From an uncultured Candidatus Peribacteria bacterium (GTDB taxonomy: Bacteria; Patescibacteriota; Gracilibacteria; Absconditabacterales; Absconditicoccaceae), in assembly GCA_964545415.1 (NCBI GenBank), contig CAZJFP010000001.1, forward strand, positions 9,786 through 73,785: a stretch of DNA of 64,000 nucleotides, in the 5' to 3' direction. Position 1 is the first letter of the stretch, and every line of letters begins with the position of its first letter. Under the pieces are notes generated by a model, which saw only the letters and a program-made list of their open reading frames with translations, did not search any database and was not told where the DNA came from. This document shows positions 9,547 to 53,960 of the stretch, piece after piece. The position numbers and the translations under genes are program-made.

Positions 9547-9756
9547 ATACATACTTATATGCTAAAAGTAATGTGACCTACGGTCGTAATTCATCACTTC
9601 GTGATGTAATGTATCCTATCGGATGTAATGTATTGTAATGAATTTTCAGATGAACTCAAGTATGAGTGTATTGTGTTTAAAAAAATTACGTCCGCATAGG
9701 CGGACGTATTACACGAAGTACATTACGTGAAGCTCATTACGTCCTTCGGGCAATTT
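9547..9756. repeat. Cluster of mini-hairpins separated by GTAATG/CATTAC words, with GC hairpin acgtccgcataggcggacgt
   Basis: It has repeated gtaatg/cattac words and small stems (gacctacggtc, atcacttcgtgat, atcctatcggat). The GC hairpin is the reverse complement of the one at 13609-13628. Confidence 0.7.
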
Positions 9757-11025
9757 TTATTCTTCAAATGTTTTTTCCATCAGGAGCGTTACTATAACGG
9801 CGATAGGGACAGCAAGCAAGATACCTAGGAATCCAAGAATCAGTCCTCAGATGATCATGCTTATGAAAATAACGATAGGATTGACGCCCAAGGTTTTGTT
9901 CATCAACAACGGTATAAGCACATTATTTTCAAGCCATTGCAAAAGCATTGCACAGCCGATCACAATCAAAGCTCCATATCGTCAGAAATGTATGAAAGCG
10001 ACCAACGCTGCAGCAGCTCCTCCAATGAATGGCCCTATATACGGGATCAACTCTGTAATCGCTACGATACCCGCAAGCGCTCATTTTTGGGGAAGATCCA
10101 ATCCAAACAATGCCAATATCCACAAGATAGCATACATGGCTACACCCATAAACAGGCAAAGCATCAGCTGGGATTTTAATCGTACTCCAAGCTGTTTGTA
10201 GATTTTTTCTATCTTCATATAGATAAATTTATATTTTTTCTGACCACCGAGCCTAGCGATAAACTTCATGACCGCGTCTTTCTGGAAAGAAAAGAGTACG
10301 GACAAAGTCAACACTATGGATGTCTGAGTAAAAAATGTAGCGATAGATCAGACTGCGCTTACTGCCATAGTACCTATATTTTTTGCGTAGGTCGTTCCCA
10401 CGCTGACCATCTGAGCAATATTCTGTTCTAATTGATTTTGCACTCCTGCTACTACCGTAGGATCTCCCAAGGAATTCAATAGCCCTGTTTTGAGACTTCA
10501 AGGAAGCCGATGGATATCCTGGATAATACCTGTCAATGATTTGGTTGTGAGCACCTCTTGAAAATTTGAGATATTGCCGATAAAGATCGTAATGATATCT
10601 GATATCTGTCCGAGAATGAACGGAATAATAAAGACCATCGCTCATAGAAATGCGAGCAACAGCAATATGTATGCTATAATGATAGATATTGTCCTATGTC
10701 CTATCTTTTTATGAAAAAAATCGATCACCGCTTCCACAGCGAGAGAGATAATGTACGCCATAAAAATCAAATAGATGATATTCAATGACTGATAGACTAA
10801 TAAACCAAGAAAAACCACCAACAATCCGAATGCTCGGAACTTGATAAACATCCTGTTGGTAAAGACAAATGGCGTAATAAGCGCTTTTTTTTCATGCTCT
10901 TTTTGTTCCTCGAGTTTTTTCTCCAATTTTTCCAATTCCAACAGTTCTCTCTTGTTGTCAGATTTGAGCGATTGAAAAAATGATGAGCTCTTCTTCATAA
11001 AACGCTTGAATATGTTCATATACAT
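9757..11025 (-). CDS. AI-2E family transporter (PerM/YhhT-like permease)
   Basis: This 423-codon minus-strand ORF is joined across TGA. It has multiple TM segments and the family motif ITELIPYIGPFIGG. It ends at TAA (plus-strand tta at 9757-9759). Confidence 0.8.
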
Positions 11026-11483: not shown

Positions 11484-11509
11484 AACGATTCTATTACTAT
11501 ATAAATTTA

Positions 11510-11593
11510 GATGGGATAGATGGATTGGATGGGATAGATGGGATAGATGGGATAGATGGATTGGATGGGATAGATGGATTGGATGGGATAGAC
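11510..11593. repeat. Tandem 9-nt repeat array (GATGGRWTW units, about 9 copies)
   Basis: The array reads gatgggata gatggattg gatgggata gatgggata gatgggata gatggattg ... It lies between rnpA and the DUF192 gene. Related words occur at 18481-18556 and 21447-21545. Confidence 0.85.
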
Positions 11594-11628
11594 AGATCTA
11601 ACCAGTTTCAAAATCAGTCTAATCCGTC

Positions 11629-12099
11629 TTATTGTATATTTACGAATCTCATCGTCGTTCCCTCAGCAATTCAATGTTTAGCAGCCATCCCTGCATTGAT
11701 TTCCAAAACATATTTTGCTGTTTTGCCTGGTTGGTAGATAGGACATGGATCCGCTGTGCACGGTTCTGCGGTATGTATTTTCACGACATTGAAGTTTTCA
11801 TCTATCCAGAGCATATCCAAAGGAATCAGAGTGTTTTTCATCCGAAAATCATAGATATCTGCTATTTCAAATACAAAAAGCATTCCTGACATCTCAGACA
11901 TCGATTCACGATACATCAATCACCTTTGATGTTCTTCCTGTGTACGAGCGACCTCTACCACAAAGCATTGATCATCTCAGCATACCTTCGGTTCATCATT
12001 ATTTTGATTCCATATAGTCATACATATGACTGCAATAATGCAAAATCCAATTATGAATCGTATTCATTGTCTTTTTACAAAATTCCGTTTGTTTTTCAT
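11629..12099 (-). CDS. DUF192 domain protein
   Basis: This 157-codon ORF is joined through TGA. It has an N-terminal TM segment and the motifs EEHQRGLMYRESMSEMSGMLFVFE and IPLDMLWID. Confidence 0.7.
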
Positions 12100-12950: not shown

Positions 12951-13598
12951 ATGCCAAAGAGAAAAGTAGAAAACAAGGTAGTAGAAGTTATCCTCTTGCA
13001 AAGCGACAAACACCTAGGAGAAAAGTTTGAGATCGTCAAGGTTAAACCTATCTTCGCGAGAAATGTCCTATTACCAAAAAATATGGCAGTATTGGCCGAT
13101 GCTATGAACAAGAATAAGTTCGCTCAAAAGATGAAAGCTGCTGAATCTGACAGACAAAAGAAAGCTGTCAATCTAGAAGACCTTTTCATCAAGCTTCACA
13201 ACGATGAAGGTATCACACTCATCAGAAAAGCAAACGCAGATGGAACACTCTACGCAAAAGTCGATGAAAACGATATCGCTACCAAAATCAACGAAGTCTA
13301 TGGAACTGAAATAGAACCTCATTACTTCAAGCTCAAAAAAAAGATTTCTGCACTCGGAAGCTTCACTATCCCATTCCTCTACAAAGAGCTTAAAAAGGAA
13401 GTTATCGTCAAAATAGAGCAAGATCCTGAAGAAGCTGAAAAGTTAGCGAAGAACAAGAAATGAACGAAAAAAGAAATAGCTGAAGAAGAAGTAAAAGTCA
13501 AAAAAACTAGAGAAGAGATAGCCGCAGAAAGAGAAGCAGCAAGATTAGCTAAGAGAGAAGAGACTATCAAGAGATTGAAAGAGAAATTTAAAGACTAA
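12951..13598 (+). CDS. rplI: 50S ribosomal protein L9 with long charged C-terminal extension
   Basis: VEVILLQSDKHLGEKFEIVKVKPIFARNVLLPKNMAV is the L9 N-domain. The ORF reads through TGA at 13461 to TAA 13596-13598, which adds a K/E-rich tail. Confidence 0.85.
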
Positions 13599-13775
13599 AG
13601 GTAATTTGTCCGCCTATGCGGACGTAATGAACTTCGTGCAATATACCTGTGGCGTAATGCACATCGTCCATTACTAATCATTACAGGCGAAGCCCTTATT
13701 ATATCCGCCATTACGGATATATTACAGTCATTTTGAAGCATAACCATGCTTATCATATCCCCGCATCGCAGGGGT
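13599..13775. repeat. Second GTAATG/CATTAC mini-hairpin cluster, with GC hairpin gtccgcctatgcggac
   Basis: It uses the same word set as 9547-9756. Its orientation relative to the upstream gene (rplI) is the same as for the AI-2E gene at the other locus. Confidence 0.7.
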
Positions 13776-14491: not shown

Positions 14492-14680
14492 TTTTTTTCT
14501 TTTTTTTATTGGTTTATATTATTCTTATATATATTTATTATAAAAAGTCAATCTCACTTACCTGTGGACTTCGGAAACAAATTTCCTATATTTCCTTTAA
14601 CTTTTTGTTAACAAACCCTCCCCGACCCTCCCTTGACAGGGCGGGAGCTAAGGAAAATTTATATATTCTGCTCAAAATAT

Positions 14681-15058
14681 ATGAACGAAGAGGAAATCAG
14701 ATATAAAGCATATAATAGAAGCAATATTGATTCTGCAAGAGAAATGAGAAAGAATCCGACACCAGCTGAAGAGAAAATACGGAATGAGATACTTAAGCAT
14801 AGACCATGAGGATATAAATTCACCAGACAAAAACCTATATGATCGTTTATAGTTGATTTCTATTGCGCTAAACTTGCTTTGGCTATTGAACTTGATGGGG
14901 AAGTTCATAAGAATAATAAGGAATACGACAAAGAAAGAACCTCTTTCTTATCTTCAAAATGAATATCGGTAATAAGATATCGAAACAATGAAGTCATTAA
15001 AAATATAGATAAGGTTTATAAAGATATCCTGAATTATATACAAGAGACTGAAAAATAG
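14681..15058 (+). CDS. DUF559 endonuclease-domain protein (Vsr-like fold)
   Basis: AREMRKNPTPAEEKIRNEILKHRPGGYKFTRQKPIGSFIVDFYC ... AIELDGEVH matches the DUF559 pattern. It contains 3 in-frame TGA codons and ends at TAG 15056-15058. Confidence 0.75.
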
Positions 15059-15141
15059 AATATTCCATGTAGCCCCCTGTCAAGGGGGAATGGGGGTTTG
15101 AAAAATTAAATTAAGAAAAATTTTATAATTATCTGTTTGGT

Positions 15142-18192: not shown

Positions 18193-19572
18193 ATGCAACC
18201 ACTCAATTTTTCTCTCATCAATCTCTGATGCACCAAGAACCTGGTCGATAGCCAATATTTCCTTGGTAGACTTTTTGATATGAGCATGAAGTCCCATGAC
18301 TATCAGATAAATTATTTTGCCGATCCCTTCGATAAAGAGACGAAATTTGTATTTGTTAATACATGTGGATTTATTTCGTCTGCAAGAGACGAAGCTGATG
18401 AAACAGTGCAACAGCTTTTGGAAGCGGGAAAGACTGTGTATTTGCTTGGATGTGCTGTACAGTATTACAAAAAGCTCATGAAAATAGACGGAATGGACGG
18501 AATAGATAGAATAGGACCTATCTCATCCAACCCGTCTAATCCATCTGGTCTCCATTATTTGTCCCGAGGCGATGTGAATAAAGTAAATCTAAAAAATATC
18601 TTAGCATGATACGATAGCAAAAGTTACGGCGATTTTGAATTTGCTAGCTCGCCGAGAGTCTATACTAACATAGAACAAAAGTTTGAATATCTCAAAATCG
18701 CAGAATGATGCGATAATCATTGCACGTTCTGTATCATCCCAGACATCAGAGGAAAGCAACAATCGCTCCCGATGGAACAGATTTTGAACGAAGCGAAGCA
18801 GATGATCGCAAACGGCATCCAGGAAATTATTTTGATAGCGCAAGATACGACGAGATACGGAAGTGATCTTTACGGTGAGCCGAAATTATTGGAATTGTTA
18901 AAAAAGTTGGATAAGCTGAAATGAGATTTTCAGTACAGACTCCTCTACTTGTATCCGGATATCGTCACGCTGAAACAAATCAAAGAGCTGAAAATATTGA
19001 AAAAGTTTATCCCGTATTTTGATATTCCCTTGCAACATATTAGTTCACCGGTCTTGAAAAAAATGGGAAGATTCTATGACGAAACATATATCAAAAAATT
19101 TTTGGATCAGATCAAAGATTCCTTTCCGATCAGATTTGTGAGAACGAATTTGATCATCGGATTCCCCGGCGAAACGAAGGAAGACTTCAAAAAACTGATG
19201 AAATTTATCGACGAAACAAAGTTCGATAATATCGCCCTGTTCGAATATCACGATGAGCCGCTAGCGGCTTCAAGTAAATTACCGAACAAAGTTTCTGAGA
19301 GTGAAATCAGAGCGAGATTCACGAAAATCAGACAGCTGGTGAATAGGCAATTGCTCGAGAGAGAGAACGACAGAAAATGAACCCAGGAAGTATGATATAT
19401 TACCGAATTTTATTCTGAATTCTGAACTCTGAATTCTGAATTAATAGTCCGTCCGCGATTGCATTGTCCAGAAATCGATGAAGTGGATGAAATTAGTTTA
19501 CCACAAGTTATCGGGACGTTCGATGAGAAAAAGGAGTTGGAAATAGGCGATAAAATAGTATATACTTTATAA
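18193..19572 (+). CDS. rimO: Ribosomal protein S12 methylthiotransferase
   Basis: It has the MTTase N-domain ([14 protein letters not shown]), the radical-SAM motif [31 protein letters not shown], and a TRAM-like C-terminus. The ORF is 459 aa and is joined through TGA. Confidence 0.8.
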
Positions 19573-19576
19573 ACAC

Positions 19577-19738
19577 CGTGCCGTACGTCATTCCGGGAAC
19601 TAATACTACACCACATCATTCCCGGAAACTAATACTACACCACGTCATTCCCGACCTGATCGGGAATCCAATTCGCTATGTAGCAAGATGGATTCCCGCT
19701 TTCGCGAGAATGACGCTGAAAAGTACGGGAATGACGTT
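19577..19738. repeat. GC-rich palindromic repeat cluster (GTCATTCCCG ... CGGGAATGAC words)
   Basis: It has a direct repeat (cgtcattccgggaactaatactacaccac, two copies), the hairpin gtcattcccgacctgatcgggaatcc, then ggattcccgctttcgcgagaatgacg and cgggaatgacg. Confidence 0.75.
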
Positions 19739-19774
19739 GCTGGAACATAAAATTTTACCTTCTAAATTCATTTC

Positions 19775-20650
19775 ATGGCTCTTACTCCCGAGCTCCAGAC
19801 TATTGCGGATACGTTAAGACAAGAAAAGGTCATCGGTTTATTGGCGCCGAGTTTCCCGGTGGATTTTTGATATCCGGAGATCATCATCAATCTCAAGATG
19901 ATCGGCTGCGAAAAAGTCGTCGAACTCACCTACGCTGCGAAGTTGATAAATATGGAATACGAGAAAATCCTCAAAGAGCATCCTGATAAACAATATATCT
20001 GTCCCAACTGCCCTACTATCGTGAAGATGATAGAATTCAAATATCCAGAGCTCAAAGAAGATATCATCAATGTCGCATCGCCCATGGTCGTTATGCATAG
20101 ATTTGTAAAAAAACAATACGGTCCCGACTGGAAAACGCTTTTTATCGGACCATGCCTAGCGAAGAAACTGGAAGCGAAACAATATGGCATCGATTACGCT
20201 ATCACATTCAAAGAATTACAGGATATTTTCGATTATTATAAAGAGAACAATATCCCGTCCAAGGAATTTACCTTTTCTGTCACCGAAGACGGCACGCCCG
20301 ATTTCGATAAATTCTACAATGATTATACTAAAGTCTATCCGCTCGCTGGATGAGTCGCTGATAGCATGCATTACAAAGGTATCCTGACAAAAGATCAGAT
20401 TCTCGTAATCGACGGACCGAAAGAGATAGATGCAGGCATACAGGAATTCAAAAACAATAAAAACATCAAATTCCTCGATATCTTAGCCTGCGAATGATGA
20501 TGTATCGGCGGACCATGAATGATGTCCAAGGAGCCGTTGGAAGTAAAAAAACAGAAAGTTCTTGAGTATAAACACTATTGTAAAAAAGATAAAATCTGAT
20601 CCAAACTCGGCAAGTTCGAATACGGAGAAGGACTCGATATCACCAGATAA
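19775..20650 (+). CDS. [FeFe]-hydrogenase large-subunit C-terminal-domain-like protein (stand-alone, 291 aa)
   Basis: It has APSF..., ICPNCPTIVKMIE, FIGPCLAKKLE and DILACEGGCIGGPG. These resemble the three H-cluster cysteine motifs. The two glycines after ACE are TGA. Confidence 0.65.
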
Positions 20651-20654
20651 ATTT

Positions 20655-20785
20655 AATGAAAAATTAAAAATTAATAATTAATAATGAATAATGTTGGTGT
20701 CGCATATTTATTAGCTATTGTAAAATTACAATAGTTCATTTGAGCAATTCTGCCATCATTCATCTTTCATTTTTCATCATTCATT
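20655..20785. repeat. ~130-nt palindromic intergenic element, family B, copy 1
   Basis: The left arm is aattaataatgaataatgttggt, the central mini-palindrome is ctattgtaaaattacaatag, and the right arm is catcattcatctttcatttttcatcattcatt. The right arm abuts the hemW ATG. Confidence 0.8.
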
Positions 20786-22123
20786 ATGTTAAGTCTCTAT
20801 ATCCACATACCGTTCTGTGCCAGTAAATGCGCCTATTGCTCGTTCAATAGTCTGCCTATTTTTCTATTAGATAATTACGAATTACAAATTACGAATTATG
20901 TTGAAGCGTTGAAAAAAGAAATCGATCATTACGCAGAAAAACTTTCTGACAAGGAAATAAAAACATTATATATCTGATGATGAACTCCGAGTAGGATCGG
21001 TATCGAGAGAATCATCGATATCATCGACTACCTCAGAACCAAATTCGATTTTGAAAATATCGCGGAATTGAGCATAGAGTTGAATCCTAATCCAGCCGAA
21101 GAAGTGTTGTTGTTCGTCGATACGATCAGCAAAAAATATAAGGAGTTTCCGAGAGTGAGATTTAGTTTTGGTATCCAAAGCCTCGACGATGAAGTTCTGC
21201 AGATGACTTGAAGAGCATACAATTTCACGCAGATAGCGGAGTTTCTTAGAGAGCTAGTGAAACACAAAAAAGAGAATACTGTATTCAATTTTGACTTCAT
21301 CGCCTTCGGCAAATTCCAGGTCAGCAAGAACGGCCATAAGCAGCTCCGGCACGAATTCAAACGCAATTTTTTGAAAGATTTTTTAAACAGTGGATATGCG
21401 GATAGTATCTCTTTGTATACCCTGGAGAATATAAAAGACAAGAAAAATGGATTAGACTGTATAGACGGATTAGGGCGTCCTTCTATCCCATCTATTCCAT
21501 CTATCCCGTCTATCCCATCTATTCCGTCCAATCCGTCTTATTATTGAACTGATGACGAGATCATGGAAGAGTTTCAAATACTGAAAAAAATCGTCGAAGA
21601 CGCGGGCTACCAAAGATATGAGATCTCCAATTTTGCACATGCTGGCAAAGCTTCCATCCACAATATGGCTTATTGGAAGATGGAGAATTACATAGGTTTT
21701 GGAGTCTCAGCAAGTTCTTTTTTAATGCAGAGTGCAGAATGCAGAATGCAGAAATCTTTCCCTGATTCTCTTGTCCTCGAAGGAGGGAAATCCTGAACTC
21801 TGAATTCTGAATTCTGAATTCGTCGAACGAATACATGAGATATCAAACAATATATCGAAGGAAATCGAAGAGATGAAGAGGAAGTTCAAACGTTGAATGA
21901 GTCAGATATATTGATAGAAGAATTTTTCCTTGGACTCAGGACCAGGGAAGGACTCGCCGATATTTCAAGATACGCTCCGGTGCTTGTTTCCAATTACGAA
22001 TCCTTGATCGCTAGCTATCAGGACGAAATGTTGGTCAATTTTGATGGAAAAAAATTACAGCTTACGGATGAAGGAATGAACCTCTCCAATACCATCATCA
22101 CGGACCTGTTGCAGAAACTATAA
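20786..22123 (+). CDS. hemW: Radical SAM heme chaperone / coproporphyrinogen-III-oxidase-like
   Basis: It has YIHIPFCASKCAYCSF, YIGGGTPS (GGG = three consecutive TGA at 20975-20983) and YEISNFAHAGKASIHNMAYW. Four track fragments share frame 2. Confidence 0.8.
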
Positions 22124-22206
22124 TCCCCTTGAAAACTCGCCCCGAAAGACTATCCTCAGTATAGGATAATATGATTATCCTATTTTTTATTTACTCCAAA
22201 AATAAT

Positions 22207-29961: not shown

Positions 29962-29971
29962 ATGCTTCGCA

Positions 29972-30093
29972 AATTGAAAATTAAAAATTAAGAATGAATA
30001 ATGTTGGTTTTGCTGAAACGAACTATTGCATTCTACAATAGCAAATAATAAGACAAAACAAAAATCATTCATCTTTCATTGTTCATCATCCAT
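29972..30093. repeat. Family B element, copy 2
   Basis: The sequence aattaagaatgaataatgttggt ... ctattgcattctacaatag ... atcattcatctttcattgttcatcatcc has the same architecture as copy 1. Confidence 0.8.
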
Positions 30094-30113
30094 TTATATA
30101 GTTATATAAAGTC

Positions 30114-53839: not shown

Positions 53840-53844
53840 AATAT

Positions 53845-53960
53845 CAATTAATAATTTAAAATTAATAATGAATAATGTATGATTTGTTTAGTTATTGACT
53901 ATAGCCTACAATCGCAATTGTCCCATCATTTTTCATTGTTCATTATTCATTTTTCATTTC
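53845..53960. repeat. Family B element, copy 3
   Basis: The sequence is aattaataatgaataatgtatga ... cctacaatcgcaattg ... catcatttttcattgttcattattcatttttcatt. It overlaps the 3' end of CDS 53943..54413. Confidence 0.75.

Follow-up and report, generated by a model that had tools for sequence, protein, structure and literature searches.

Introduction

Among the small repeats described in bacteria, the Rickettsia palindromic elements (RPEs) and the heptanucleotide repeats come closest to the structures reported here; as Ogata et al. 2000 is summarized in the relevant passage of PMC10969869, RPEs are roughly 100 to 150 bp long, have a conserved sequence, and fall into about ten families. We analyzed a stretch of 64,000 nt (referred to throughout as the window) from an uncultured Candidatus Peribacteria bacterium (contig CAZJFP010000001.1 of assembly GCA_964545415.1, forward strand, positions 9,786 to 73,785), in which a HemW-like gene of the radical S-adenosylmethionine (SAM) type, hereafter hemW, holds three repeat-like segments (seg1 to seg3). 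As judged from orthologs with empty sites, seg2 and seg3 are hairpins inserted in frame, and we argue that the frame probably survives because selection filters a high flux of repeats. The same passage describes RPEs as dispersed palindromic repeats located in spacers and, in frame, in unrelated housekeeping genes, where they add peptide segments at fold-compatible positions and are present or absent among orthologs. Seg2 and seg3, but not seg1, share these traits, being multicopy in spacers and open reading frames (ORFs) and present or absent, in frame, among orthologs. The resemblance appears to be one of behavior only, and we make no claim of sequence similarity. Unlike in RPEs, the arms here are tandem 7-nt or 9-nt arrays of variable unit sequence that slip by whole units, different families replace each other at one site, and the host uses genetic code 25, with one element needing TGA to be read as Gly.

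Heptanucleotide repeats offer another comparison. GGGAATC in Xanthomonas and GGGGATT in Nostoc are credited to Mrazek 2007 where that work is cited in PMC4679880 and PMC4692102; TAACTGA heptamers are known from Beggiatoaceae and cyanobacteria, with intragenic copies mostly at protein ends (PMC4679880), and the cause of such repeats is described as unexplained, polymerase slippage having been proposed (PMC4692102, PMC4679880). Like these, the arrays in our window show an overrepresented period of 7, lie mostly in spacers and often beside start or stop codons, sometimes form inverted-repeat pairs, have rare intragenic copies, and use a unit common to distant lineages. Unlike these, many units coexist in one genome and the pairing of two arrays into a hairpin is the rule, and, in contrast to the TAACTGA repeats, those inside genes are found in loops in the interior of conserved enzyme sequences.

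Intragenic miniature transposable elements with inverted repeats (MITEs; ERIC, BOX, and Anabaena MITEs in PMC10969869) are small nonautonomous inverted repeats capable of in-frame fusion to ORFs of the host. This pattern is matched by a DUF559 element and by derivatives of it that lack the ORF, both seen in sister genomes (see below). Seg2 and seg3 seem to differ from MITEs in that no terminal inverted repeats with a target-site duplication could be defined for them and no associated transposase or parent element was found; both took the place of a few native codons rather than duplicating a target. Palindromic amphipathic repeat coding elements (PARCELs) resemble seg2 in being coding repeats with dyad symmetry, so that the peptides from the two orientations are alike (on its reverse strand, seg2 encodes DGLDGIDGIDGID...PNPS), but they consist of 25-residue units that build whole surface proteins and not short enzyme inserts. 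Our literature searches returned nothing specific on repeats in Absconditabacteria/SR1 or on DUF559 mobile elements, and only tangential papers on cyanobacterial small dispersed repeats or short tandemly repeated repetitive (STRR) sequences. What is new here is the combination of periodic-arm hairpins, repeated occupancy and swapping at two enzyme loops, and dependence on TGA = Gly.

Results

Two in-frame hairpin insertions in hemW

A preliminary description of the window had proposed that hemW contains three in-frame insertions drawn from repeat families found elsewhere in the window. Translation and repeat scans located all three segments where it had placed them (Table 1), and the frame runs through them uninterrupted, giving an ORF of 445 codons. 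For comparison, we aligned 36 database orthologs of hemW and also took the gene, under code 25, from 79 GTDB genomes and from contigs of its closest relatives that are syntenic with the window (L080 and L081, with hemW proteins 86 to 87% identical); the syntenic blocks were aligned by MAFFT. Seg2 and seg3 belong to families with other copies in the window, as the description had it, and are absent from many orthologs; seg1 differs on both counts and is treated separately below.

Table 1. Positions of hemW, its segments, and related repeats in the window
Feature	Position	Strand	Details
HemW-like radical-SAM gene	20786..22123	+	Intact; 445 aa when read with code 25 (TGA = Gly)
Seg1, (AATTACG) array	20872..20900	+	About 3.7 copies; TRF and own scan; encodes DNYELQITNY
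Seg2, in-frame insertion, 9-nt hairpin family	21443..21538	+	32 codons replace about 5 native loop codons
Seg3, in-frame insertion, 7-nt-periodic hairpin	21722..21823	+	About 30 codons
18-nt module CTTGTCCTCGAAGGAGGG	21770..21787	+	LVLEGG; nested in seg3 loop
9-nt hairpin family, sister copy	18481..18549	+	In frame in MiaB-like gene
9-nt hairpin family, intergenic copy	11508..11629	-	Directly after DUF192 gene stop codon
TCTGAAT array, sister	19411..19443	+	In frame in MiaB-like gene, YSEFGTLNSEL
Spacer element	20651..20785	+	Fills whole gap from upstream stop codon to hemW ATG; heptamer arms plus core hairpin

In the close clade, the ground state of the protein comprises 386 aa in total, of which site 2 takes up 14 aa and site 3 takes up 4 aa. 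Site 2 is empty in nine close-clade orthologs (TLENIKDK-PCPxI-YYGT), and in the window the PCPxI residues give way to seg2. Its left arm (21446 to 21476) is purine rich, with GGATTAGAC-type units, and its right arm (21478 to 21538) is a 9-nt array, (TCTATCCCA)n, encoding PSI/PSN. The segment folds as a hairpin of -22.8 kcal/mol (z = -1.75). Copy number at seg2 differs from that in L080 and L081 by 9, 18, or 27 nt. The family recurs in the neighboring MiaB-like gene and in the spacer downstream of the DUF192 gene, and the 9/18-nt periodicity persists in that spacer copy.

Site 3 is empty in thirteen orthologs (SASSF-FGNK-RRTNT), and in the window the extra codons precede the retained F-G. Seg3 is built of a left arm, (ATGCAGA)4, at 21724 to 21756, an inner loop at 21757 to 21791, and a right arm, (TCTGAAT)4, at 21792 to 21823, which continues into the native F-G codons. 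The arms measure 33 and 32 nt and the loop between them 35 nt, so that no rule of three is inherent in the element. Pairing leaves one mismatch per unit, and the fold reaches -31.5 kcal/mol (z = -1.68), in keeping with the earlier account of seg2 and seg3 as hairpins. Two TGA codons (21794 and 21815) are read as Gly; under code 11, each forward frame of seg3 is closed by a TGA, and the segment is therefore readable only in code 25, where TGA encodes Gly.

A 20-pair stem of seg3 is preserved in 8 orthologs, with 2 pairs altered on both sides, and the ortholog L087 shows compensatory AU-to-GC changes in it. The window's right-arm unit TCTGAAT is replaced once in L080 and twice in L081 by TCTGCAT, the exact complement of ATGCAGA. 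The 18-nt module in the loop is absent from L080 and L081, identical in a distant ortholog (L083, 1207 to 1224), and inverted in L086 (1114 to 1131), where it encodes PPSRTS. The TCTGAAT unit occurs at five places in the window, counting seg3 (the others are at 19411, 30619 on the minus strand, 43021, and 43651). The seg3 loop and the module had no second copy in the window, and among the loci fetched, the left arm and the module were found only at site 3 of hemW. From these searches, the whole seg3 element is not a dispersed unit in the sampled DNA, whereas the arm units alone are.

For seg2 and seg3, a location in loops is predicted by an AlphaFold model of the closest homolog, which is 87% identical (P0001; mean predicted local distance difference test score [pLDDT], 86.5), which matches Escherichia coli HemN (1OLT) with a template modeling score of 0.69 (E = 1.8e-18). 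Residues 220 to 241, 308 to 315, and 317 to 325, corresponding to the seg2 and seg3 inserts, are the only ones with pLDDT values of <50. According to this model, both segments sit in disordered surface loops compatible with the fold; seg1 lies in a helix.

The gene and its genetic code

The earlier identification of the gene, with TGA read as Gly, stands, with the gene taken as HemW-like. The ORF extends from an ATG at 20786 to a TAA at 22121 to 22123 and is open only with TGA as a sense codon (8 in frame). Close to the N terminus is a CxxxCxxC motif for [4Fe-4S]/SAM binding (C11-x3-C15-x2-C18), and at 20975, the GGGTP motif (Y-I-G-G-G-T-P; I63-GGGTPS) is written TGA-TGA-TGA-ACT-CCG, all three glycines coming from TGA. 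The TGA codons at residues 142, 254, and 351 align with G in code-25 records and with W in code-4 translations, and TGA makes up 24% of the Gly codons of the window. Pfam detected Radical_SAM at residues 5 to 167 (E = 1.2e-16) and HemN_C (PF06969) at residues 372 to 431 (24.9 bits; cut-off, 24). The best of 17 HemN-family models in NCBIfam was HemW (TIGR00539; 154.9 bits), whose match falls in two separate stretches and does not reach the curated cut-off of 205.4; for this reason, we call the gene HemW-like. Its homologs are Absconditabacterales/SR1 proteins of 356 to 476 aa. Thus, the gene is HemW-like and comes from an SR1 (Absconditabacterales) bacterium with code 25.

The ratio of nonsynonymous to synonymous divergence (dN/dS) was 0.08 to 0.12 against six orthologs, and synonymous sites were saturated against all but the closest ones (proportion of synonymous differences [pS], 0.65 to 0.77); purifying selection acts on hemW. 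An assembly artifact was rejected as the source of the repeat structures because three independent assemblies (L080, L081, and L082) show the same ones. Along the gene (20640 to 22135), divergence from L080 and L081 is a mosaic, near 0 at about 20640 to 20980 and about 21340 to 21830 and 10 to 25% elsewhere, which suggests recombination between related SR1 genomes. A 113-aa ORF separates hemW from nusA in L080 (11351 to 11692) and L081 (8147 to 8488); the window has a 47-nt spacer there (22124 to 22170).

Repeated occupancy of the same loops

Sites 2 and 3 both follow the radical-SAM core and precede the HemN_C domain. Across orthologs, unrelated occupants of at least six families fill site 2 and of at least four fill site 3, mostly hairpins of period 7, 8, or 9; one occupant of site 2 holds a DUF559 endonuclease domain with inverted repeats on both flanks. 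Filled and empty alleles are interleaved across the gene tree. In more than 25 orthologs, with at least 10 unrelated sequence families among them, no filled allele at either site departs from the frame or contains TAA or TAG. Each empty site is itself a short palindrome.

The MiaB-like radical-SAM gene nearby (18193 to 19572) repeats this picture, with a 9-nt-family hairpin at about aa 97 to 118 and the TCTGAAT array at aa 407 to 417. Both sites are empty in several orthologs and filled by other elements in others, a DUF559 element being among the occupants of the TCTGAAT site. The DUF559 (Vsr-like endonuclease) element stands free in the window at 14614 to 15099 (ORF, 14681 to 15058), its gene flanked by GC-rich inverted repeats (CCCTCCCCGACCCTCCC...GGG), and L080 and L081 have a spacer there that lacks some 400 nt by comparison. 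The element or a derivative without the ORF occupies both MiaB-like sites and hemW site 2 in sister genomes; it lies in frame at hemW site 2 (L060) and at site B of the MiaB-like gene (L014 and L053), where the flanks read ...PSPLHGEG / WRGxGGE.... Derivatives that lack the ORF were seen in L002, L011, L046, and L060.

Repeat load and turnover

The window contains 21 period-7 arrays versus 0.5 in shuffled sequences, and 1 to 2 each of periods 6, 8, and 9. A census of 28 close-clade loci (444 kb) gave 131 period-7 arrays, about 30 per 100 kb; spacers hold 1.59 of them per kb and ORFs only 0.106, a 15-fold difference. As many as 52 of the 83 intergenic arrays (63%) have TAA or TAG on both strands and therefore could never occupy a gene, and 15 of the 37 intragenic arrays carry TGA on the sense strand. 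Array lengths follow no strict rule of three in either genes or spacers, although length modulo 3 is uninformative in itself because array ends are fuzzy. Relative to L080 and L081, spacers show repeat-associated indels of 7, 6+1, and 137 nt. Those in hemW measure 9, 18, 27, and 18 nt, and the DUF192 gene has one of 9 nt.

The spacer element directly upstream of hemW consists of an arm of (AATGAAT/AATTAAT)n, a core hairpin (CTATTGTAAAATTACAATAG), and a complementary arm of (TCATTCA)n, and it differs by one 7-nt unit from its counterparts in L080 and L081. It belongs to a family of spacer elements of ~130 nt (20651 to 20785, 29962 to 30113, and, on the minus strand, 53840 to 53942 and 56409 to 56560; also L080, 5330 to 5480, and L081, 1510 to 1680), found immediately upstream of the start codons of hemW, nrdR, tsf, the L10 region, and uvrB. 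Their order is heptamer arm, ATGnTGGTTTTGC, conserved core hairpin (ACTATTGTAAnnnTACAATAGTT), and complementary heptamer arm, the arm units varying from copy to copy with complementarity kept.

Downstream of the DUF192 gene, flanks that are 99% identical enclose the 9-nt-family hairpin in the window but an unrelated heptamer hairpin, (TAAGTGC)n...(CTTAGAA)n, in L080 (2377 to 2508). The difference suggests that one cassette replaced another at a fixed site immediately following the stop codon. The window also carries a 137-nt element of the CGTAATG/GTCCGCCTATGCGGAC family (13598 to 13734) that neither L080 nor L081 has; relatives lie in the spacers at 9553 to 9756 and 19573 to 19774. Rfam at gathering thresholds gave nothing at the repeats of the window. 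Its sole match there was the L10 leader (RF00557; 56556 to 56686, minus strand; 47.3 bits), flanked by heptamer arrays at 56433 to 56466 and 56529 to 56555. A promoter and terminator consensus scan of the region from 18 to 24 kb stayed at background level.

Seg1 is native sequence shaped like a heptamer array

Seg1 was rejected as an insertion, given that all orthologs have homologous residues at this position, of equal length (consensus LENSELLITNY) or three residues shorter, and that it forms the start of the confidently modeled helix 1 (P0001 residues 31 to 52; pLDDT, 85 to 95). Outgroups with few or no arrays in their sampled loci carry homologous residues as well, reading NNLENSQKIIDNY or NNIENSHKIIDNY (L047, with 1 period-7 array in 4.8 kb, and L051 and L054, with none); this is an outcome that the preliminary description had itself named as refuting an insertion. 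No hairpin is predicted from seg1 (folding z = +0.8), and its AATTACG unit occurs at no other place in the window. Seg1 is thus native helix-coding sequence, the synonymous sites of which match the AATTACG heptamer: the minority codons TAC, TTA, ATT, and ACG all fit it (P = 2e-4 given the peptide and the codon usage of the window). L004 and L012 share all 27 of its nt, and L021 shares 26 of them, despite a pS of 0.65 to 0.70; 9/9 identical codons have a P of about 0.005 per pair. These modest signals suggest a process that homogenizes quasi-periodic native sequence at seg1. In L010, L017, and L021, (AATTACG)n is also found at a conserved N-Y-E site near the C terminus of hemW (equivalent to about 21985 to 22010 of the window), with peptides that include IKDYELRITNL and LITNYEG.

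The seg3 arm in metagenomes

The exact 22-mer (ATGCAGA)3A was found in more than 120 metagenome contigs of 38 to 68% GC (soil, termite gut, and others). There, the arm (L088 to L167) is often part of a perfect hairpin with (TCTGCAT)n, and in one contig (L120), its partner is (TCTGAAT)4, precisely the arrangement of seg3. These contigs contain 194 period-7 arrays versus 8 to 17 for each of periods 5, 6, 8, and 9, and units containing AAT/ATT are enriched in them.

Discussion

To explain why the frame of hemW survives, the preliminary description had offered either strong selection for in-frame insertions or a mechanism that generates them in multiples of three. We favor selection filtering a high flux of repeats, with two tolerant loops taking them in, at a probability of about 70%. 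This SR1 lineage is heavily loaded with short-period repeats, which often form hairpins by pairing, mostly 7-nt units with a smaller 9-nt family, chiefly in spacers, where they appear to turn over rapidly by whole-unit slippage and by replacement of hairpin cassettes at the same spot. Repeats have entered the two insert-tolerant loops of hemW, or grown there, time and again across lineages, and in the genome studied here, one loop holds a 9-nt-family hairpin and the other a heptamer hairpin, both presumably translated as disordered extensions of a working enzyme. Survival would be limited to copies that are in frame, lack stop codons, and lie in tolerant loops, which would keep the frame intact; 9-nt units are trivially in frame, and TGA = Gly enlarges the set of tolerable heptamers. 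On this account, the inserts are presumably neutral passengers that arose by slippage, by template switching between arms, or by recombination with other copies.

The multiples-of-three alternative, in which a mechanism inherently adds bases in threes and keeps the frame without selection, draws on the 9-nt family, whose spacer copy at 11508 to 11629 holds its period free of any reading-frame constraint and whose seg2 differences are all 9, 18, or 27 nt. Against it, the main class has 7-nt units, spacer arrays of close relatives differ by 7 nt, neither the arms nor the loop of seg3 comes with a rule of three, array lengths show none in genes or spacers, and a whole intergenic element at 13598 is polymorphic at 137 nt, which is not a multiple of three. 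The depletion of arrays in ORFs and the stop codons in most intergenic arrays also point to filtering, and we regard a mechanism of this kind as quite unlikely. That the intragenic hairpins are selected nucleic acid signals (for example, attenuators inside the gene, RNase III sites, pauses in translation, or arrays bound by a heptamer-recognizing protein), the peptide being a by-product, would suit the 20-pair stem kept in 8 orthologs at saturated synonymous divergence with its 2 compensatory double changes, the correction of the arms toward perfect complementarity in L080 and L081, the related spacer elements placed exactly between stop and start codons, and the proposal that TAACTGA heptamers in Beggiatoaceae are sites for a posttranscriptional regulator (PMC4679880). 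However, the folding z-scores are modest (-1.7), the design of one mismatch per unit is neither G-U wobble nor strand specific, and template switching between arms would give equal covariation without function. Many orthologs have no insert at these sites and others have unrelated sequences, so hemW needs no specific signal, and we consider this explanation improbable.

The remaining two alternatives deny the inserts a place in a functional protein. Ribosomes can bypass coding gaps and inserts can be removed, as in T4 gene 60 hopping, mitochondrial "byp" elements, and inteins, and hairpins within a conserved enzyme might invite the idea that seg2 and seg3 go untranslated, through bypass or through removal from the mRNA or the protein. 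Yet the absence of frameshifts, TAA, and TAG from every filled allele would be needless if the inserts were skipped, 10 independent inserts would all be in frame by chance with a probability of about (1/3)^10, and we found no intein or intron motifs and no Rfam match here; bypass or removal is very improbable. A hemW decaying as a pseudogene, with the insertions as damage, would agree with the HemW score below the curated cut-off, but the ORF and the CxxxCxxC and GGGTP motifs are intact, dN/dS is about 0.1, and insert-bearing orthologs are intact in dozens of genomes. We rejected this explanation, which is hardly credible.

Several points weigh against selective filtering as we propose it. The same few loops have been struck repeatedly and the empty sites are palindromic, so it is possible that existing hairpins are targeted instead of selection alone being at work. 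The arms are more conserved than synonymous sites elsewhere in hemW, which could reflect a function of the hairpin instead of a neutral passenger. Translation of the inserts is itself read from the nucleotide sequence, with predicted peptides such as ...IKDKKNGLDCIDGLGR..., ...PSNPSYYGTDDEIMEEF..., and ...SGTLNSEFGIR..., and their loop placement from a model of an 87%-identical homolog, in which low pLDDT may come in part from sparse alignment in the insert columns. In addition, the gene calls are crude code-25 ORFs, the gene tree is a neighbor-joining tree without support values, and the indel sample is small.

A more speculative idea, to which we give limited credence, is that an active process writes heptamer-periodic hairpins into the DNA of the SR1 clade and perhaps of many other bacteria. 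Such a process may be biased toward AAT-containing units (AATGCAG, AATTCAG, and AATGAAT), may act at small existing palindromes and swap cassettes at fixed sites, and may homogenize nearby native codons, as at seg1, continually remodeling protein loops; the DUF559 nuclease elements found in the same loops may be linked to it. If true, more of its products would become readable through TGA = Gly, and the recurrence of (ATGCAGA)n would reflect a shared enzyme, mobile agent, or binding protein and not chance.

For selective filtering, with which the observations above agree best in our judgment, the consequence would be that a conserved enzyme in a tiny recoded genome has been remodeled repeatedly at two loops by selfish or slippage-born repeats, and that a codon reassignment (TGA = Gly) alters the range of repeats that can be taken into a proteome. 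In practical terms, repeat inserts depress profile hidden Markov model scores, leaving HemW under its curated cut-off here, and together with code 25 can mislead the automated annotation of candidate-phyla genomes. The cross-phylum heptamer family is worth follow-up, and relatives that differ by repeat units, cassettes, and arm corrections make these bacteria a tractable system for the origin and abundance of bacterial 7-nt repeats.

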